Shown piece by piece: positions 3,247 through 11,140 of a stretch of 24,661 bases of DNA. The position numbers and the translations under genes are program-made. Source of the stretch: an uncultured Candidatus Saccharibacteria bacterium (lineage in GTDB: Bacteria > Patescibacteriota > Minisyncoccia > Phycocordibacterales > SBAW01); the NCBI GenBank assembly GCA_964559665.1, contig CAZLHN010000001.1, positions 1 to 24,661 on the forward strand. The letters are read 5' to 3'. The notes beneath the pieces are model-generated. The model was not told where the DNA came from. It did no database searches and saw nothing but the letters and a program-made list of their open reading frames with translations. The first letter of the stretch is position 1; each line of letters begins with the position of its first letter.

Positions 3247-4224
3247 CTACCTTGCCGCAAGGAAATTTTCAATCAGGCTCTCTACTTCGTCGGCATTTTT
3301 TGCATCCATCAGCTGCACGCGCAGATCCTTGGCGCCGTCGAACCCTTCCACATACGCCTTAAAATGCTTCTTCATGATCGCGAAGTTTTTGATATCTCCC
3401 AAAAGCTCTTCAAAAAGCTTGGTATGCTCGATTGCGATACGGAGGCGAACCTCGAGCGAAGGAGAATTCTCTGGCGCTGTGGCAAATAACCAGGGCCTAC
3501 CAAAAATCGCGCGGCCCAACATCACACCATCGGCTCCCGATTCAGCTGCCTTCTTTTTTGCATCATCCATATCCAGCGCGTCGCCGTTACCGATGATCAA
3601 TGTCTTACTCCCCAACTCATTGCGGATCTCGACTGCACGCTTTACCCTGTCCCAATGCGCGGCGACTTTGGACATCTCCTTGCGCGTGCGCGCATGGAGC
3701 GTCAGCGCCGCAGGCTCGGCAGCGAGCAGCTTCGGCAGCCATTCTTCTAAAATATCTTTGTTGTATCCGAGGCGCGTCTTGACCGAGACGGGCAAGTTCG
3801 GCGCGCCGCGCTTTGCCGCCGCAATAAGCTCGACCGCAAGCTCGGGATTTAAAATGAGCTTTGCCCCGGCGCCCTGCTTTTCGATCGTTTTGTCCGGGCA
3901 GCCCATGTTTATGTCGACGCCGTCAAAGCCCAGCTCTTGCGCGAGGGCCGCAGCCTTTTCCATATGCTCCGGGGTCGCGGTAAAAAATTGCGCGACGATG
4001 GGCCGCTCAGCCTCGCTGTATAAGAGATCGCACATGAGCTTGCGCTTGCCTTCCTCGTTCGCGAGAGCCAAGCCATCGGCCGATACGAACTCGGTCCACA
4101 TCACCTGCGGCCCGCCGGGCTTGGAGTACTTGGCGATAAGCCGCCGGAAAGCCGCGTCGGTAACATTGGCCAAAGGCGCCAGCACAAAAAAAGGCTTCGG
4201 CAGAGAGTCCCAGAAACTATCCAT
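3247..4224 (-). CDS. dus: tRNA-dihydrouridine synthase
   Basis: LAPLANVTDAAFR, TEFVS, DINMGCP (catalytic Cys), VSVKTRLG, LHART, GNGD, GVMLGRA motifs. Confidence 0.95.
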   Translation of the reverse strand: MDSFWDSLPKPFFVLAPLANVTDAAFRRLIAKYSKPGGPQVMWTEFVSADGLALANEEGKRKLMCDLLYSEAERPIVAQFFTATPEHMEKAAALAQELGFDGVDINMGCPDKTIEKQGAGAKLILNPELAVELIAAAKRGAPNLPVSVKTRLGYNKDILEEWLPKLLAAEPAALTLHARTRKEMSKVAAHWDRVKRAVEIRNELGSKTLIIGNGDALDMDDAKKKAAESGADGVMLGRAIFGRPWLFATAPENSPSLEVRLRIAIEHTKLFEELLGDIKNFAIMKKHFKAYVEGFDGAKDLRVQLMDAKNADEVESLIENFLAAR

Positions 4225-4260
4225 CCACTTACAGTAGTGCGAGTCGGCACACTTGTCTAG

Positions 4261-4307
4261 AAAACATAAAGGGCAGATCTTCTATATTTATATAGAAAAT
4301 CTGCCCT
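4261..4307 (-). terminator. intrinsic terminator
   Basis: Inverted repeat AGGGCAGAT-c-TTCTATAT / ATATAGAA-a-ATCTGCCCT followed on the minus strand by TTTATGTTTT. Confidence 0.75.
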
Positions 4308-4646
4308 GGTAGTGGCCTCTCGAATCACTGCGCTCTCCTCCAAGCAGTGAAGAGATCTCTCGGGATCATCCGCCCTAGCGGCTAACGACACGAAAGGCTT
4401 TGCCGTGAAAGTCCACGCTCGGGAGCCTCCGCAGGATCACGCGGTCCTGCGAACACTTTCTCCCCTTGCGCCATAACACCTCCAAACATCGGATGCACGA
4501 TTGTCCGGAGCAGAACCAGCGGAATCTGCATACGCTCAGCACCATTTTCCTCAGTAGGTTCTGTGCAAAAGAACGGTGCCTGTCATGACTAGCCCGCTCC
4601 TCAGACTTGGATGGAAGTTCTTTACTGTCTATCTTCCAAAGACTCT

Positions 4647-4674
4647 ATTATAAAGAACGAGACGAAGTCTTGAA
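4647..4674 (-). promoter_or_regulatory. putative sigma70 promoter (perfect -10, weak -35)
   Basis: TATAAT at 4652-4647; TTCAAG 16 nt upstream. Confidence 0.45.
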
Positions 4675-4739
4675 GTGGCTGTGAAATCCGTGTACAGAAA
4701 GTCGCTCCAAGTGCGGCGAGTCTCTATACCACGAACTCT

Positions 4740-4975
4740 CTAAGGGTTCTTGTATCGCGGGAGCCCTTAGCTCACCATCCGCGAATGTAGCCCGGCGGAA
4801 TCATGGACTCTCCTCCAGCTTCGGCCAACAACTGTTGCGGGCCGAAGAAGAGGAGCGAGCAGGATCAAAAACCCTGACTCGCCCCACGCTGTACGCACGC
4901 GAACAAAGAACCCATGAGCAGGGGGAGCCCGAAGGTCTGCCCCTGCTTGCTGTTGCTGGTCGGACGTCTGCCGAC
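4740..4975 (-). ncRNA. candidate structured RNA / 3' trailer of the ubiquitin-like operon
   Basis: At least five hairpins including a cUUCGg tetraloop (4928-4935), plus long-range helices 4744-4759/4898-4913 and 4802-4813/4905-4916; no credible ORF. Found by eye, not by folding software. Confidence 0.5.
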
Positions 4976-5268
4976 TAGTTGCCCTTGATCTTGCCGACCA
5001 GGAGCACGGTGTGGCCGGCCTTGAGCTCGGTTGCCAAGGTAGCCGCCTTGCCCTGGACGCGGATCTCCTTGCCGTCGGCCGAGAGTCCCGCGCCCTCAAG
5101 CGCGTCCTTGACCGTGCGGCCGCCGTTGAGGGCGATCGACTCGATCCGGCCGGGCAGGCGCCCGACGCGGACTTCGATGAAGCCCGGATCCTTGGCCGAC
5201 TTGGCCTTGGGAGCCGGAGCGCTGCGGGCGGCGGTGGAACGCGAACGGGTAGCAGTTGCGGTGGCCAT
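4975..5268 (-). CDS. ubiquitin-like (beta-grasp, ThiS/MoaD-fold) modifier with basic N-terminal tail, ends -KIKGN
   Basis: EVRVGRLPG...GRTVKDALEGAGL...EIRVQG...TELKAGHTVLLVGKIKGN matches the beta-grasp pattern. Start moved from 5328 to 5268 because of a GGAGG SD; 97 aa. Confidence 0.85.
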   Translation of the reverse strand: MATATATRSRSTAARSAPAPKAKSAKDPGFIEVRVGRLPGRIESIALNGGRTVKDALEGAGLSADGKEIRVQGKAATLATELKAGHTVLLVGKIKGN

Positions 5269-5338
5269 GGTTTTTCCTCCACATGGCGTTGCTCGGTTTA
5301 ACGACTTGTACAGTCCGTCGTGATCCATAAAGCCAGGA

Positions 5339-5695
5339 TCAGAGTTGTTGCAGTTGCAGTCTTTTTTCAGAACTGGGCAGTGCGGGATCCGCGAGGCAGA
5401 CGTAGTCTCCCTCGCGGATCACATAGTCCATCGGAACATCGTCTGCGTTGGCGAGCCGGAGCCTTTCCGGCAGCCAAGGCCTTTCCTTACCGTAGCTATG
5501 TCCGGATCTCATCGAGCAGTTCTCTTGGAGCCAGACCAGCAGTTCGGAAAGCGTCATGCCGACAACGAAGTCGGCCGCAAAGGCGATATCCCTTCCGCAA
5601 TCGACGTATGCAACCGGTCCTGCCGGCCGCCGTACGGCGATACTTGTCGCGGGCCGCTTGTAGAGCGACCCGAACCACTGAATGAGGCTCCGCAT
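5339..5695 (-). CDS. probable second beta-grasp/ubiquitin-like protein lacking a C-terminal Gly
   Basis: GMTLSELL...LRLANADDVPMDYVIREGDYVCL resembles the ThiS/MoaD signature; sits in the operon 9 nt after the E1 stop. Confidence 0.6.
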   Translation of the reverse strand: MRSLIQWFGSLYKRPATSIAVRRPAGPVAYVDCGRDIAFAADFVVGMTLSELLVWLQENCSMRSGHSYGKERPWLPERLRLANADDVPMDYVIREGDYVCLADPALPSSEKRLQLQQL

Positions 5696-5704
5696 GCAGA
5701 GCCC

Positions 5705-6403
5705 CTAGAACTGACGGTTGATGATTGCCATCGACGGGCGGAGCGAAAAGATGATCTCGTTGTCGAGGTCGTCCTGCTCCCCCCGTTCTACAGCGAACCA
5801 CCGTACCATCTGCCAGACGGCGAGTCCAGCGATGACCTCGGCCGTGGGGCCGACGGAGATGGAGGCCCCGCAAGCGGATACCTCTGCCTCCTGGTCGGTG
5901 TAGAGCGTCTGCTCCCATTCCCGGATATGACCGAGCTTGCTGGGATTGAACGCGTACACGCGGCCGTTGTCGGCGCCCATGCGGGTCTCGACCAGCAACT
6001 TGGTGCGGAGCTTGAACTTAAGCGCCCCGTCCCAGATCGCCTTTCTGGAGCCGTCTCCGTCGGTCATGGTGTCGACGAGCAGGAATACGATCTCCCCGAG
6101 CTCGCTTGAGGCCGTGACCTTTTCGGCGTGCGTTTGGACCGACACGCCGGTTGCTTCGTGTATGAGGCGCGCGAGCGCCTCGGTCTTGAGTGCGCCGACG
6201 TCGCCGAGCCCGAAGGCCTGATTGGCGACGTTGTGATCCTCGATCGTATCGAAGTCGTGGATGTGGATGTTCTCCACGCCCAGCTTCGCGAGCGAAAGAG
6301 CGACGCGTGATCCGGTGGCTCCGCACCCGATGACATCGACGCGACGCGCGCCGAATGCATAGGGCGGAAACACCGTTATGTGGCGCAGGGGGTCAACCGA
6401 CAC
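5705..6403 (-). CDS. ThiF/MoeB/E1-like adenylating enzyme
   Basis: RHITVF Arg, VIGCGATGS nucleotide-binding loop, DFDTIEDHNVANQ, LLVDT, ETRMG, crossover-loop Cys (SACG, 5870-5872). GTG start with GGGGAG SD preferred over ATG 6421. Confidence 0.92.
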   Translation of the reverse strand: MSVDPLRHITVFPPYAFGARRVDVIGCGATGSRVALSLAKLGVENIHIHDFDTIEDHNVANQAFGLGDVGALKTEALARLIHEATGVSVQTHAEKVTASSELGEIVFLLVDTMTDGDGSRKAIWDGALKFKLRTKLLVETRMGADNGRVYAFNPSKLGHIREWEQTLYTDQEAEVSACGASISVGPTAEVIAGLAVWQMVRWFAVERGEQDDLDNEIIFSLRPSMAIINRQF

Positions 6404-7178
6404 TGGATGTCTCCCCTGCATGCGTCATCGTCGGATCGAGGACGACGATCCTGCCGGTACGGTTGCCCGAGATCTCCCCGGTATACCCAGGATGGGCTGG
6501 CTGTGGGCCTCCCTTCCAGGATGAAACAACCGTATGGGTCGGATAGACCTTCCTCGAGACCTTGTCGTTAAACTCGGTCTCGAGCTCGGCCCGCATGCTG
6601 TCGTCGATCTGGTCCCAGATGGACCACGCGGCGTCGATCACCTTCACTCCGGAATCCCAGAAGAAGATGTCGAACCGCATGACCCCCTGCTTGTTGAGGA
6701 TGCCCCGGATAAACCATGGGCATCCGCTGTCCCGGAGCTCGTCCATCTGCCGATTGTCCTGGTAAGACGGATCGGTCGACATATTGACGTGGCTGTGGCC
6801 CCAGAACCGGAGCCGGTTAGCCACGTCCATGCCGTCGGAGCGAGTTTCGATGAGGTGCTGGACAAGCTTTGCCTGTCCTTCCGTGGAAAGCTCAGTTTGA
6901 GCCGACGTAACCTCCTGTTCAAGGAGGAACACCTCCTCGATGACGAAGTTGCCAAGCCTCGTCATCTTGACCGTGCCGAGCCAGCCGACTTCTTCATGGG
7001 CGATGTCCACCAAGTGATACATCCGGGAGTATGCGTCCCGGCTGACATACACATGAGGGACCGGCCTATCGATGAATTCGATCCGACCCGGCGTACGCTG
7101 TTGCACGAACGGCAGCGCGGGCTTGGGGACGGACTTTGTCTTTTTTGCCTGGCGCGGCCGTTTCGCTGTAAGCTTCAT
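6393..7178 (-). CDS. JAB/MPN+ (JAMM) metalloprotease, prokaryotic deubiquitinase/Ubl-maturase type
   Basis: EVGW Glu, then WGHSHVNMSTDPSYQD = H-x-H-x7-S-x2-D JAMM motif (HSH at 6789-6797). Start at 7178 with AGGAG SD, 261 aa; the ORF-track extension to 7388 overlaps the upstream gene. Confidence 0.92.
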   Translation of the reverse strand: MKLTAKRPRQAKKTKSVPKPALPFVQQRTPGRIEFIDRPVPHVYVSRDAYSRMYHLVDIAHEEVGWLGTVKMTRLGNFVIEEVFLLEQEVTSAQTELSTEGQAKLVQHLIETRSDGMDVANRLRFWGHSHVNMSTDPSYQDNRQMDELRDSGCPWFIRGILNKQGVMRFDIFFWDSGVKVIDAAWSIWDQIDDSMRAELETEFNDKVSRKVYPTHTVVSSWKGGPQPAHPGYTGEISGNRTGRIVVLDPTMTHAGETSSVG

Positions 7179-7194
7179 GCGACTTCTCCTCTTG

Positions 7195-9537
7195 TTAGGC
7201 CGCGACTGGCCAATCGCTGATGTGCTTTCCGGCTGAGTCATCGGTGTTGACCGACTCGATGAACTGGATAGCCACCATCGCAAGCGCCGCGAACTCGTAA
7301 TTAGCGACGAGCTCGGGCAGTATTTCATGCATGTTACCGAGACAGGCCGAACCGTCTCCGGAAAAGACGTGCGGTGCATCATGACCATTTATCTTCCGCG
7401 TGAGGTTGAACCAACGGACCTGACCGTTGAGCCCGACCTCGATGCGGAAGGCGCCTATCTCATGTTTCTTCTTCGAGCGCGGATCGACGCAATAGAGGAT
7501 GTCGGTAAACACCTCGATCGCGCCTTCCTCGATGCGCACGTCACGGACCTTGTCGACCTCGAGCAGATTGTCGAACTCCTTGCCGTAGCCTTCTTCGACT
7601 CCGGCGTTGGATGCCTCCAACTGCTCGAGCTTGCGCCGAGCTCCGTTTCCCTCGCGAATGCACTTCACGAGTTCTTCTTGGAGCTGATTGACGCGGGTCT
7701 CGTTGTCCTTGATCGCACGCTTCGTGCCTTCGATAGTCTTTTCAATCCGGCGGGCACACGCCTTCATGTACGCTTCGCGCGAAGCGGCGCGGCGCTTTTG
7801 GCGCCGGTCCTCCTCGCGTGCCGCCTTTTCCTCGGGGGTCGCGGTCATGATGGTGATCGTTTCCTCGAGGATCTTGCGGAAGAGCACAGATACGGACTTG
7901 CCGTCCCAAGAGAGACGAAGGTCCGCAGAAGCAGAAAGTGGGTAGTGGATGTAGAGACTGTCACCGATGAGCTCGCCGACCTGATTGCCGGCGTCGTCCT
8001 CGATAAGCAGCCCTTCACCCGAGGGGCGCACGATTTTGCAATCGCGCCCCCACGCAAGCCTCGCCCCGAACAGGGTCTGGCTCATGCTGCGATGCGTCCG
8101 GTAGTTGGGCGACGAAAAGATGCACACGTGCACCCTGCCGTCGTTTTCCGGCGCATGGCTTTTCTCCCTGCGATAGTCGTCGTGGATAATGACCTGCTTG
8201 CCGCCGAACGCCGGTGCAAGTTCGGTCGCTACCGCGACAAACTCCACCTTCAATGCCGATGCCCCGCTCCAGTTAGAAGCGCGCACCGGCGTCTGCCGTG
8301 CCTGCTGTCGGGAACGCGCCGCCTTTTCCTCATCGGTCGCGGTCATCATGAATGCCGCTTCCTCGAGAATACGACGGAAGAGCGCCGATGCGGGTTTGCC
8401 GTCCCAGGCGATACCAAGTTCTTCCCTGACGAGCGCATAGTGGATGTAAATGGTTTCGCCGACGACTTCGCCGACTTGGTTTCCATCCTCATCCTTGATG
8501 GTAACCCCGTCCCCCGAAGGGGCCAGGATCTCCGCGTTGCTAACGAACCGCAGCGACGCCCCGAAGAGTTCGGAGCGCATATGACCGTCCCCATTGAGGT
8601 GCGGCGACGCATTAATGCACACGTGCATCTTGCCGTCGGCGTACGGCGCTTTGTCGTGATACGAGTTCCACGCATGCAGGACCATCTGCTTGCCGAATGC
8701 CGGCGCAAGCTCGGTCGCTACTGCAAGAAACTCGGCACGCATGGCGCTTGAGGCATTCCATTCCATGACCCGAACGAGTACCTGTTCGCGCCGCCGGGCA
8801 CGCGCTGCCTTTTGCTCGTCGGTTGCGGTCCTAAGAAAGACCGCTTCCTCGAGGATCTTGCGGAAGATGCTCGCGGAGTTCCGGAAGTCCGAGTTGGTGA
8901 TGGGATAGAAGATGTAGAGGTTATTCTGCACCAGCTCCCCAATCTGCACACCGGCATCGTCCTCGACTCTGATGCCTTGGCCGGACGGAGTGCGGATATT
9001 CCACGCTCTCTCTGAGAGTGTTTCCCCCCAAAGTATAAATGGACCTCCGACCGTCCGAACCTCGCCTACGAGAGACGACCACAGCTGGATATGGAACTTG
9101 CCGTCTAAGACCGCGGGAGTGCCCCTGTAAGCCTCCCGATTGTCATGGATGACGATCTCGGGCGTGCGCAAAAGCGAGACGAAGTCGCGTGCGATGGCGA
9201 CATACTGCTCGCGAATGCGTTCGCTTGCTTCCCGCGACCACTGCGCGACAGTGACGACGCGGGAGGCCGAAGGCGGCGGCGCAGCCGGTGTCGCGGCACG
9301 ATTAGCCGTAGCGCGGTTGGCCGGGGCGCGCTGGAGTGTGATAGCCGTGATCCCCTCGTATTGCGTGGGTCTGCGGCTTTCAACTTCCGAATGCAGCGCC
9401 TCAAGCACGCGAGGCAAATGAGCCTCGTTGAACACCAGCCCGTCCTGCCTTCCGATGCGGAAGTCTTCGACGGGGATGTTGGCGGTCCGGAATGCGCTTA
9501 CGCGCGCATCCGTCCGAATAAGGAAGTAAGTATTCAA
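7195..9537 (-). CDS. multidomain E2/UBC-fold protein: small N-domain, 3 tandem ~160-aa repeats, coiled coil, C-terminal E2-like domain
   Basis: C-terminal APHVFSGDGSACLGN matches the E2 HPN...G.ICL motif (Cys codon 7342-7344). TTG start at 9537 chosen for its AGGAG SD (780 aa); the ORF is open to 9783, but that TTG is the -35 box. Confidence 0.75.
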   Translation of the reverse strand: MNTYFLIRTDARVSAFRTANIPVEDFRIGRQDGLVFNEAHLPRVLEALHSEVESRRPTQYEGITAITLQRAPANRATANRAATPAAPPPSASRVVTVAQWSREASERIREQYVAIARDFVSLLRTPEIVIHDNREAYRGTPAVLDGKFHIQLWSSLVGEVRTVGGPFILWGETLSERAWNIRTPSGQGIRVEDDAGVQIGELVQNNLYIFYPITNSDFRNSASIFRKILEEAVFLRTATDEQKAARARRREQVLVRVMEWNASSAMRAEFLAVATELAPAFGKQMVLHAWNSYHDKAPYADGKMHVCINASPHLNGDGHMRSELFGASLRFVSNAEILAPSGDGVTIKDEDGNQVGEVVGETIYIHYALVREELGIAWDGKPASALFRRILEEAAFMMTATDEEKAARSRQQARQTPVRASNWSGASALKVEFVAVATELAPAFGGKQVIIHDDYRREKSHAPENDGRVHVCIFSSPNYRTHRSMSQTLFGARLAWGRDCKIVRPSGEGLLIEDDAGNQVGELIGDSLYIHYPLSASADLRLSWDGKSVSVLFRKILEETITIMTATPEEKAAREEDRRQKRRAASREAYMKACARRIEKTIEGTKRAIKDNETRVNQLQEELVKCIREGNGARRKLEQLEASNAGVEEGYGKEFDNLLEVDKVRDVRIEEGAIEVFTDILYCVDPRSKKKHEIGAFRIEVGLNGQVRWFNLTRKINGHDAPHVFSGDGSACLGNMHEILPELVANYEFAALAMVAIQFIESVNTDDSAGKHISDWPVAA
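7804..9255 (-). repeat. three tandem intragenic repeats (~490 nt / ~162-166 aa period)
   Basis: Recurring PSG.G..I.D..G.Q.GE...LYI.Y and FR(K/R)ILEE...TAT.E.KAAR; identical 23-mer TTCCTCGAGGATCTTGCGGAAGA at 7861 and 8845, with a variant at 8359. Confidence 0.9.
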
Positions 9538-9748
9538 TGTACTTCTCCTTTGCTGGGCCGGCACGAGGATCATTCGCCCCATGCCGGACTGTGAGAACAG
9601 GCCACCCTTAACCGCCCTAAAGCGGAGAATGGCCTTGTATATAGCACGTATGAAGCCGGGGATTTCTCTCCCGGTGTTTTCAACGTACGAAGTGCTTGTC
9701 GGGCCTATACTCTGCGGCTTGCGCCGGGTTTCGGGCCCTTCCAAGGCT
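9538..9748 (-). promoter_or_regulatory. structured 5' leader of the ubiquitin-like operon (candidate cis-regulatory RNA)
   Basis: Four consecutive hairpins: 9715-9726 (GCAA tetraloop), 9643-9696, 9599-9635, and 9558-9587 just before the SD. Confidence 0.5.
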
Positions 9749-9754
9749 GCCGGG

Positions 9755-9783
9755 AGTTTAGCATGATTGATTACATTTGTCAA
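9755..9783 (-). promoter_or_regulatory. sigma70 promoter of the ubiquitin-like operon
   Basis: TTGACA (9783-9778), 17-nt spacer, TGc-TAAACT extended -10 (9760-9755). Confidence 0.8.
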
Positions 9784-9824
9784 GTCGTTACAAAGTATAA
9801 AACCTATGGCATTTGATGGGCCGC

Positions 9825-9853
9825 TTGACAGTATGTAAAAGAGGGTTTATATT
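9825..9853 (+). promoter_or_regulatory. divergent sigma70 promoter
   Basis: TTGACA (9825-9830), 17-nt spacer, TATATT (9848-9853). Confidence 0.75.
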
Positions 9854-9859
9854 GCCTGT

Positions 9860-9958
9860 CAGACATAGGAGGAATGCCGCGCGGTGTCTCCCGGATGATG
9901 GAGCCCGAGCACGGAATACCCCAGCCCGCTATCTATAGATAGCGGGCTTTCTTATTTT
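9860..9958 (+). ncRNA. candidate ~100-nt small RNA (or 22-aa peptide)
   Basis: Bounded by a consensus promoter and a strong terminator; the only ORF (9874-9942) has its SD 1 nt from the ATG and runs into the terminator. Confidence 0.4.
9923..9958 (+). terminator. intrinsic terminator
   Basis: AGCCCGCTATC-TATA-GATAGCGGGCT followed by TTCTTATTTT. Confidence 0.8.
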
Positions 9959-10000
9959 ACTGAGTTGGAAACATCCAATAAAGCCGTCTGATAAATTCAT

Positions 10001-10029
10001 TTGACTTCAGTATCCACTCGCGGTCTAAT
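10001..10029 (+). promoter_or_regulatory. sigma70 promoter of the 72-aa gene
   Basis: TTGACT, 17-nt spacer, TCTAAT. Confidence 0.6.
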
Positions 10030-10062
10030 AGTCAACTGGACTGCAGACACGAGGAGTCAGTA

Positions 10063-10281
10063 ATGCAGTGCGAAGCAGGCGGAGCAAAGCTCCGTACTAA
10101 CTATCATTCCAAAGGAGAGGAATTTGTCGCCCATCTCCCAGTGGTCAAAAAGGATGCGCCGCTGATGAAATTGAGTCCTGAGACGGATGCCATCTTGGGA
10201 CCGATAATGGCAGAAGATGGTGAAAATCCACCAGCCCAGAAAGAGTCTTGGTTCACGCGAGTCAAGGCCTTCTTCTGGTAG
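10063..10281 (+). CDS. small hypothetical protein with C-terminal amphipathic helix
   Basis: Own promoter, GAGGAG SD at 10051-10056 and downstream terminator; ends SWFTRVKAFFW. Confidence 0.7.
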   Translation: MQCEAGGAKLRTNYHSKGEEFVAHLPVVKKDAPLMKLSPETDAILGPIMAEDGENPPAQKESWFTRVKAFFW

Positions 10282-10332: not shown

Positions 10333-11140
10333 ATTTCAGCTTGTAGTAGAGTTTATCCCCGAATCGCAGATCAAGGTATTGAAAATCCGCAAGCGCGTGC
10401 GTAGTAAACGGGTCGGCCGTGAGCGCGAGGCGGAAGCGCTCCAGCACGTCCGCGGTATTGTCCGCGGTCGAGAACATGAGCGCAAAGCCGCTTGCAAAAT
10501 GCAATGTTGCAAACGTGTCCCCTACTTCCAGACTTGTGACCTGATCCTTTGCCTGCTGCCCTGCTGCGGCGGCGAAGGCGGAGAGTGCGCCGAATTCATC
10601 CGCGTTGAGAAATTGCTTGGGTTGCGCGTCGGATGCGTGGCCGTAATATTTGATATACACCTCGCCGGAGAAATCTGCCGCAGGCGCGTACACCACGCCG
10701 CCTGCGTCGAGCAGAAAGCACGGCGATGACGATGCGACGGACTCTCCGCACCACAGCGCGTGCGGCCCGCGCTCGAGCACGTCCACGCGCAGGTTCGTAA
10801 AGCCCTCCACGCGCAGCGCGATGCTCTCAAATACCGGAAATTGCTGCTGAAGCCCTGCGCGCACTTGCGCCTCGGGGTAAAACAAAGCATTGTCGCGCGG
10901 GAATACGTACCAATAGGTGCCGGCAATCTCGCTGCGCACCGCGCTTTCGACGCTGCTGGTGCTCACCGAGGACGCGCCGATCACCTCGATAGTTTGTATG
11001 CGCACAAACGGCGCCCAAGCGAGTGCCACTGCGCCGCCCGCGAGCACGAGGAGCAGAAAAAGTACGATGCCCGCGAGCACGAGGCGCCTCCGGCGGCGGC
11101 GCGCTTTGAGCTTTGACTGCGGCAGTACGACCCTGGCCAT
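10331..11140 (-). CDS. ftsQ: cell division protein FtsQ/DivIB-like
   Basis: Basic N-tail, single TM helix, POTRA-like segment (IQTIEVIG...LRVDVLER), C-terminal YLDLRFGDKLYYK. Confidence 0.8.
   Translation of the reverse strand: MARVVLPQSKLKARRRRRRLVLAGIVLFLLLVLAGGAVALAWAPFVRIQTIEVIGASSVSTSSVESAVRSEIAGTYWYVFPRDNALFYPEAQVRAGLQQQFPVFESIALRVEGFTNLRVDVLERGPHALWCGESVASSSPCFLLDAGGVVYAPAADFSGEVYIKYYGHASDAQPKQFLNADEFGALSAFAAAAGQQAKDQVTSLEVGDTFATLHFASGFALMFSTADNTADVLERFRLALTADPFTTHALADFQYLDLRFGDKLYYKLK

Follow-up and report, generated by a model that had tools for sequence, protein, structure and literature searches.

The stretch of DNA analysed here (24,661 nt, hereafter the window) carries an inserted island of ∼5.8 kb (about 4233–9989), with an operon for a ubiquitin-like protein (Ubl), an E1-like adenylyltransferase and a putative JAB/JAMM-like peptidase. 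All coordinates are positions within the window, and the features of the operon and of its 3′ trailer are on the minus strand unless stated otherwise. From its upstream end, the operon comprises genes for a 780-aa protein (7195–9537), the peptidase (6393–7178), the E1-like protein (5705–6421), a 118-aa protein with no assigned function (5339–5695) and the Ubl (97 aa, 4975–5268). The trailer follows, and next to it lies the gene dus.

The original prediction, made from the sequence alone, concerned positions 4740–4975, immediately after the Ubl gene. It described a series of hairpins and mutually exclusive helices, and proposed a functional non-coding RNA or a conformational switch, co-transcribed with the Ubl system. 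As stated, a hairpin-rich trailer is a fairly ordinary finding, and its value is as a lead: conservation selected 83 of these 236 nt, and led to a different element 430 nt away. This element is a hairpin motif undescribed before, which covaries and brackets a family of Ubl operons.

The 3′ trailer and its conserved core

Positions 4740–4975 form the proximal part of a non-coding 3′ trailer of ∼740 nt (4233–4974). On the strand of the operon, this segment follows the Ubl stop codon and precedes the first intrinsic terminator (4270–4307; a 17-bp stem followed by a U-tract, UUUAUGUUUUC), and from this position its co-transcription with the operon is the simplest reading. A structurally equivalent terminator is found at the same place in the related locus L004. 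None of the hairpins of 4740–4975, when tested as intrinsic terminators, has a U-tract directly after its stem; the absence of a canonical U-tract terminator, noted in the original prediction, is therefore correct within the segment, but a canonical one is present further down.

A pseudogene or small gene in the trailer was considered and rejected, as no match was returned by Pfam searches with its five small open reading frames (ORFs), or by tblastx against 1.5 kb of sequence past the Ubl gene in each of 28 related loci. The indels found in its conserved part, of 2 nt, are not multiples of three. No match to the trailer was obtained by blastn in phage and plasmid collections, and no strain variants were seen in the reads of four metagenome runs or in the near-identical contig L016 (L001–L003 and L016 represent the same strain as the window, and show no trailer variation).

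All five hairpins that had been placed within 4740–4975 are present on the minus strand: an inverted-repeat search recovered those at 4819–4847, 4917–4947 and 4740–4770, and folding those at 4959–4975 and 4852–4885. The first after the Ubl gene (4959–4975) is a 5-bp hairpin over the stop codon, with a pair probability of 0.34, lineage-specific and not alignable with L004. The hairpin at 4917–4947 is GC-rich with a cUUCGg loop (pair probability 0.8–1.0), and its sequence is also lineage-specific, an unrelated hairpin being found at a similar position in L004. The hairpin at 4740–4770, which overlaps one arm of a long-range helix (4744–4759/4898–4913), has no counterpart in L004 either.

The segment folds better than shuffled controls. 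The minus strand reaches −109.8 kcal/mol, compared to a mean of −88.6 (sd 5.1) over 200 shuffles, none of which was as good (0/200, z = −4.16). A sliding z-score scan across the full window (mean −0.93, sd 1.5; 5th percentile −3.65, 1st percentile −5.09) places the region low, at −4.6/−4.4, and six coding windows of the island score lower. The coding window 6580–6860 has a z-score of −4.59 with 200 shuffles, and minus-strand coding windows in 5300–6960 and 9320–9680 were observed at −5 to −9 with 30 shuffles. This strong folding of coding windows may reflect composition or codon periodicity, and a low folding z-score in such a GC-rich island is by itself no evidence of function.

The alternative pairings ascribed to 4898–4916 can both be drawn from the sequence. 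One is a complementarity of 16 nt between 4744–4759 and 4898–4913, identified by the inverted-repeat search; the other is a helix of 12 bp, including four G-U pairs, between 4905–4916 and 4802–4813, which forms in a shorter fold. The RNA could thus be a switch, riboswitch-like or triggered by a protein, toggling between the 4898–4916/4802–4813 and 4898–4913/4744–4759 helices, which compete with each other and with the 4740–4770 hairpin; as 4802–4813 is transcribed first, it could pair co-transcriptionally before 4744–4759 exists. However, the partition function of 4700–4990, an equilibrium model with kinetics outside its scope, gives pair probabilities of mostly 0.7–0.98 for the long-range helix 4898–4913/4744–4759, and about 0 for both the 4802–4813 alternative and the 4740–4770 hairpin. 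The helices therefore exclude each other on paper, but one conformer dominates the predicted ensemble. Furthermore, 4898–4916, 4802–4813 and 4744–4759 all lack a counterpart in L004/L005, no Rfam match was found, and there is no conserved ORF after the last gene, leaving nothing to control. With non-conserved segments and a single dominant predicted conformer, the switch is unsupported on grounds of both conservation and predicted thermodynamics, and I consider it very unlikely.

Conservation was assessed mainly with L004/L005, the sole orthologous island from another species, which sits at the same place beside dus and encodes a Ubl that is 71% identical. The two trailers cannot be aligned, except for the terminator with the ∼80 nt proximal to dus, and for a block of 83 nt (4806–4888) that consists of two hairpins, labeled A (4854–4883) and B (4812–4853, with CUCCU/GGAGG at its base). 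Compared to positions 2480–2562 of L004, the block is 82.7% identical by BLAST (over 4808–4886) and 89% identical in the trimmed alignment; the Ubl coding sequence, at 74.6%, is below this latter value. The block includes perfect matches of 26 nt and 14 nt, within 400–600 nt that are otherwise unalignable. All 26 predicted pairs are kept in the two sequences, and 12 of the 13 differing columns inside the hairpins are unpaired (in loops and bulges, and including two 2-nt indels), while the remaining one changes a G-U pair to G-C; the confinement to loops has a hypergeometric P of 3e-7. Both hairpins also emerge when the window sequence is folded alone, with pair probabilities of 0.5–1.0. The comparison suggests that, within 4740–4975, only this block is under selection.

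The block was not found in 30 or more homologous Ubl loci, either by BLAST or with a covariance model. The covariance model of the block (R1), searched in 43 sources, matched the window and L004 only, besides weak hairpin-like matches, indicating that the block is lineage-specific. Its exact core was not found in viral contigs. A conserved trailer in homologous operons is thus confirmed for the 83-nt core in L004/L005, but not for the other hairpins or for either of the two helices. The proposal that no known RNA family is involved agrees with the covariance-model searches: only three tRNAs reach the gathering threshold of Rfam 15 in the window, and nothing credible is found at E ≤ 10 in 4200–5350 or 9400–10060. 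As for the original prediction as a whole, the non-coding nature of the segment and a conserved core are retained, with co-transcription as the simplest reading, but not the switch.

A GGAGGAG sequence resembling a ribosome-binding site is located at 4803, in the 3′ strand of hairpin B, and is followed 5 nt later by a 10-codon ORF (MIPPGYIRGW, 4803–4772). This ORF is not present in L004, and is therefore probably fortuitous.

One could argue that the trailer is non-functional, a decaying GC-rich insertion spacer, and that its 83 nt of identity with L004 are left over from a common ancestor or arose by gene conversion over a small patch. The trailers of the two lineages are indeed largely unalignable, and both the coding windows of the island and the plus strand fold as well as the segment itself. 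However, perfect matches of 26 nt and 14 nt in 400–600 nt of unalignable sequence, with all changes in loops, are unlike neutral decay, and the hairpin motif at 4348–4387, to which I now turn, recurs in distant lineages with covarying stems. I therefore regard a trailer devoid of function as unlikely.

A hairpin motif at both ends of the operon

A shared sequence, GGGCGAWUGAUCC, was first seen inside hairpins in the trailers of other Ubl operons. A fuzzy search, followed by a covariance model (R2), identified 17 instances in 11 loci, namely the window, L004, L006, L011, L012, L014, L017, L021, L022, L023 and L044. In the consensus, an 8-nt loop, CRNWUGAW, is closed by an inner GGG/CCY stem, which short asymmetric spacers separate from a variable outer stem of 4–9 bp. 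No Rfam match was found at the motif in the trailer and 5′ leader of the window, or in six related loci.

The window possesses two copies. The 5′ copy (9552–9591; R2 34.4 bits, E = 8.5e-6) is in the leader of the first gene, with the core GGGCGAAUGAUCC (9579–9567), an 11-bp stem and the loop CGAAUGAU; an AGGAG is found 17 nt, and the TTG start codon 29 nt, after the core. The 3′ copy (4348–4387; R2 27.4 bits, E = 5e-4), with the core GGGCGGAUGAUCC at 4375–4363, is located 56 nt before the terminator, and is the sole R2 match in the trailer when the filters are switched off (27.3 bits). An orthologous 3′ copy is present in L004, at 2806–2845. The GGAGGAG sequence noted in hairpin B recurs directly after the 3′ copy (4341–4335), as well as in L006 and L017. 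Hairpin A of the conserved block retains GGG-N4-UGAU-CCU in the window; the block was tried as a diverged copy of the motif and rejected, with a pairwise alignment z below 2 and about 0 bits with R2.

The arrangement of the copies could be judged only where upstream sequence sufficed. Both a 5′ and a 3′ copy are found in all four such loci with the usual gene order (window, L006, L012 and L014), and in L022 both copies are between the Ubl gene and the first gene. In the five 5′ copies (those of the window, L006, L012, L014 and L022), the ribosome-binding site follows the core by 12–18 nt and the start codon by 22–30 nt. The proteins that begin there have homologous N-termini of the pattern M-x-N-Y-F, with MNTYF in the window, and MRNYF, MNSYF, MKNYF and MNYLL in L014, L006, L012 and L022, respectively. 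The 3′ copies are located 25–60 nt before a terminator. Sigma-70-like promoters are found about 170 nt (window) and about 240 nt (L012) upstream of the 5′ copy; with such good promoters, this copy would be transcribed.

The stems of the motif covary. For the outer stems, matched flanks give a mean helix of 5.4 bp, compared to 3.9 bp for mismatched flanks (permutation p = 5e-5). Pairing in the inner stem amounts to 93%, two of its three pairs show compensatory changes, and 2 of 500 shuffles attained a covariation score as high. As a negative control I used viral contigs, where the core has 106 matches, which lack closing stems and are chance-like, in coding sequence: a closing helix of at least 5 bp is found in 14 of the 17 motif instances, and in 20% of 79 chance core matches from these contigs.

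The core might instead be the −10 region of a promoter (AATGAT or TATGAT) rather than an RNA hairpin. A promoter-like match in L006 does use the TATGAT within the core, and 22–30 nt between core and start codon would fit a short leader. However, the invariant core positions are C4, U8, G9 and A10, while those that define a −10 hexamer (A at 2, T at 6) vary; a promoter has no need of covarying flanking arms; L014 possesses no −35; and strong promoters are found upstream in the window and L012. A promoter was rejected for the first of these reasons, the invariant bases not being those of the hexamer, and I give this reading very little credence indeed.

The position of the 3′ copies raises another alternative, in which a separate small-RNA gene occupies the part of the trailer past the block, comprising a promoter of its own, the motif and the terminator. 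Its product would titrate whichever factor binds to the 5′ leader, acting as a decoy in the manner of CsrB, and the block at 4806–4888 would be the true 3′ end of the operon mRNA. It is consistent with this that a strong terminator hairpin is present within 25–60 nt after the 3′ copy in every lineage, that the GC content falls from 65% to 53% immediately past the block, and that a TATAAT hexamer is found at about 4652–4647 on the minus strand. Against it, a promoter scan of 4100–5400 identified no sigma-70-like site, and only 50–70 nt separate the Ubl stop codon from the motif in L006, L017 and L014, leaving little room for a promoter. A separate small RNA is therefore, in my view, also unlikely.

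In the trailer of a related operon, L160, at about 3435–3475, there is a variant of the motif whose loop is expanded to a longer stem (GGGCGGUGG-AUGAA-CCACCGUUC), and which R2 misses; it is followed by AAAGGAG and a terminator.

The inserted island and its genes

The limits of the island were taken from the breakpoints of backbone homology with close Paceibacterota relatives (L046, L047, L049 and L051). Homology ends at 10334 (9990 for L046) and restarts at 4232. Only 5–10 nt separate the ftsQ-like gene from dus in L047 and L049, and in the window the island sits between these two genes. This break and restart, together with the adjacency of the two genes in relatives, identify about 4233–9989 as inserted. 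Comparison of these loci makes the Ubl-E1-JAB operon clearly a horizontally inserted, mobile one. Related operons are found in unrelated contexts, often adjoining tRNA genes (L014 5412–5498; L017 2514–2595; L006 1172–1245 and 1826–1897), which suggests tRNA-proximal integration of related islands in other lineages. In L014, the tRNA gene comes directly after the terminator of the trailer.

At the dus end of the island, the segment between the terminator and the dus start codon (4225–4269) is part of 83 nt that show 66% identity with L004; in relatives devoid of the island, dus abuts the upstream gene. This segment is probably a promoter and leader supplied by the island to dus. At the other end, L046 shares with the window only 9990–10281, a small divergent ORF with its promoter region. 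The window belongs to a genome of Candidatus Paceibacterota (candidate phyla radiation). Elsewhere it carries dnaX, serS, topA, relA and miaA, and the Dus proteins nearest to its own are named Paceibacterota or Parcubacteria.

Such mobility could mean that the conserved hairpins act at the level of DNA, as single-strand hairpins of a mobile cassette that a recombinase or HUH transposase recognizes in trans, with the motif copies marking the ends of the cassette. The operon is found between adjacent housekeeping genes here and in unrelated contexts elsewhere, often near tRNA genes; the genes are flanked by the copies as direct repeats, whose loop is conserved and whose stems vary, as in attC sites or rolling-circle origins; and neither folding energy nor wobble pairs settle the strand or the type of molecule. 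However, the copies are about 115 nt (3′) and about 400 nt (5′) inside the island ends, with the promoter and terminators outside them, and the 5′ copy keeps a conserved distance from the ribosome-binding site and from the start codon. Both features disfavour a DNA-level role. Neither the gene list nor a Pfam search revealed a recombinase or Rep gene in or beside the island, and the R″/R′ consensus of attC is not present in the sequence. The ends of IS200/IS605 elements and integron attC sites are hairpins at element boundaries with a cognate recombinase or transposase, and this combination is not seen here. I consider a cassette signal to be decidedly improbable.

The operon is preceded by a sigma-70-like promoter (9755–9783; TTGACA-17-TAAACT, 10/12 matches, with a TG before the −10). 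The TTG at 9783, listed as the start of an 862-aa ORF, is in fact part of the −35 hexamer of this promoter. The first gene likely starts with the TTG at 9537, after an AAGGAG, giving a protein of 780 aa and a leader of ∼200 nt. This protein possesses three internal repeats of ∼170 aa, a long coiled coil predicted as a single helix of ∼75 residues (568–643), and a C-terminal domain with the motif APHV...G..CLG (H723...C732), invariant across homologues. It has no match in Pfam, in PDB sequences or by fold, and the C-terminal domain is predicted with a low predicted local distance difference test (pLDDT) score. The H723...C732 pair suggests that this domain is a possible E2.

The assignment of the JAB/JAMM-like peptidase is weak, relying on PADLOC JAB models (E = 3.4e-4 and 2.4e-3). 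The E1-like protein (238 aa) is a single-domain adenylyltransferase of the ThiF family (Pfam PF00899, E = 1.7e-19), with the ThiF domain at residues 27–210, and is also matched by the PADLOC E1-E2 and NCBIfam ThiF models. The 118-aa protein is confined to the lineage of the window and L004; its gene is missing in L006 and L014, which both bear the motif. The Ubl, which ends in KIKGN, was modeled with AlphaFold2, with a pLDDT of about 80 in its core and a beta-beta-alpha-beta-beta topology, and Foldseek matched it to Mth1743, ubiquitin, SUMO, TtuB and SAMP1. Its family is small, with 10 clusters in a protein search, 5 loci in genomes and 30 in metagenomes; viral contigs contained one distant relative locus of the Ubl, and no relatives of the first gene. 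In the family alignment (4975–4983 in the window), the C-termini are G-N, or G-N or G-G followed by 1–3 residues, with no free G-G. C-terminal trimming would therefore be needed before adenylation, presumably by the JAB protein.

No regulator gene is present in the island. On the plus strand, divergent from the operon, a strong promoter-like site (TTGACA-17-TATATT, 11/12 matches) lies about 70 nt ahead of an intrinsic terminator (9923–9948) with a U-tract. This unit (9825–9958) could possibly encode a small RNA of ∼100 nt or a 22-codon ORF (MPRGVSRMMEPEHGIPQPAIYR).

Proposed role and comparison with known systems

Taken together, the explanation that I favour, with a probability of about 0.5, is that the operon ends in a long 3′ untranslated region (3′ UTR), in which the block is a stabilising or processing element, and that the motif is an RNA operator. 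The operon would be transcribed from the promoter at 9783–9755 to the terminator at 4307–4270. In its 3′ UTR, the block would form a stable, lineage-specific double stem-loop, acting as a barrier to 3′-exonucleases, or as a site of processing or factor-dependent termination, where the coding part of the mRNA ends; the other hairpins and alternative helices of 4740–4975 would be unselected GC-rich palindromes. The motif hairpin would be a protein-binding operator common to the whole family. A protein bound to the 5′ copy would regulate the initiation of translation of the first gene; the 3′ copy would compete for the same factor, or protect the 3′ end.

Several observations weigh against this explanation. 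The plus strand of 4740–4975 folds equally well (z = −4.53), and as both strands fold alike, folding energy alone cannot identify the strand; the wobble pairs of the motif stems, with 7 G-U versus 4 A-C, are not decisive in this respect either. The block is known from two lineages only, and includes no compensatory double change. The local stem that closes the 3′ copy of the motif in the window is poor, weaker than in any other copy, and this copy may therefore be decaying. The motif is missing in the related operons L007–L010 and L160–L165, and in the distant L166, some of these motif-less operons possessing other hairpins at the same place. Searches with Pfam, PADLOC, NCBIfam and by fold revealed no recognisable RNA-binding domain in the operon proteins. 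Finally, co-transcription, the 3′ ends, and the nature of the elements as RNA rather than DNA are themselves inferred from the sequence.

The motif hairpins could also be recognition sites for the Ubl machinery itself, with an RNA hairpin read or modified by the JAB protein, by the repeat protein of 780 aa or by the E1 together with its Ubl. This I regard as a long shot. If true, the Ubl system would be RNA-gated or RNA-directed: its own mRNA would receive feedback from the state of the pathway or, alternatively, similar hairpins on invading nucleic acid would be the trigger.

Bacterial ubiquitin-like operons (Bil, Bub and type II CBASS) are being actively investigated for antiviral and signalling functions, and their known regulators are DNA-binding proteins with genes close to the operon. 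If the motif is an operator, it would represent RNA-level control specific to a Ubl operon family in bacteria of the candidate phyla radiation and a few other phyla, and would provide a handle for identifying which protein senses what. The Ubl of the window, for its part, I take to resemble the sulfur carriers ThiS and TtuB.

Two types of operon are the nearest points of comparison for the genes: the Ubl/JAB/E1/E2 neighbourhoods of class 6d of Iyer et al. (2006), now named Bil, for bacterial ISG15-like (PMC1779556), and the 6E/DUF6527 ubiquitin-like operons, or Bub (PMC11601596). The operon of the window similarly combines a Ubl, with a beta-grasp fold according to AlphaFold2 and Foldseek as in class 6d, an E1-like adenylyltransferase and a JAB-like peptidase, is sporadic in distribution and is carried on an inserted island; it is closer to Bil than to Bub. 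However, its E1 is a single ThiF domain of 238 aa, not the tandem IAD-AAD-CYS architecture of BilD, its E2 is only suspected (from the H...C of the 780-aa protein), and its JAB was identified by a weak PADLOC match. Unlike in Bub, Pfam revealed no DUF6527 (BubE) serine protease among the island proteins. The Ubl differs from those of both in ending in G-N. No RNA element is reported for Bil or Bub in PMC1779556 or PMC11601596. The operon lacks defining features of both, and the motif is placed in no family.

Stabilising 3′-UTR stem-loops, and terminator-like hairpins devoid of a U-tract, occur at operon ends. The block resembles these, as it consists of two strong GC-rich stem-loops, non-coding and soon after the last stop codon. 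It differs in that its sequence is conserved as well as its structure (26 consecutive identical nt); it has no U-tract, and a canonical terminator is present about 500 nt beyond it.

For the motif, one comparison is with the guanidine-II (mini-ykkC) riboswitch, which consists of two small hairpins with conserved ACGR loops, 7–40 nt apart. As in that riboswitch, the functional unit would consist of two small hairpins, nearly identical and characterized by their loops, of which one is near a ribosome-binding site, but the 8-nt loop of the motif does not contain ACGR, its copies are about 5 kb apart, and it has no Rfam match.

The other comparison is with translational operators, hairpins bound by a protein, such as those of the MS2 and PP7 coat proteins, the leaders of ribosomal proteins, and CsrA sites. 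The CRNWUGAW loop of the motif is unlike all of these, and membership is not claimed; one of its copies is in the 3′ UTR, about 5 kb away, and its binding partner is hypothetical. As in these operators, the motif is a short hairpin whose loop is conserved in sequence and whose stem varies freely and covaries, and a second copy on the same RNA could compete for the factor. Its five 5′ copies are at a fixed place beside the start of the first gene, 12–18 nt upstream of the ribosome-binding site, a feature that applies to the 5′ copies and not to the 3′ copies, and is likewise that of a translational operator.

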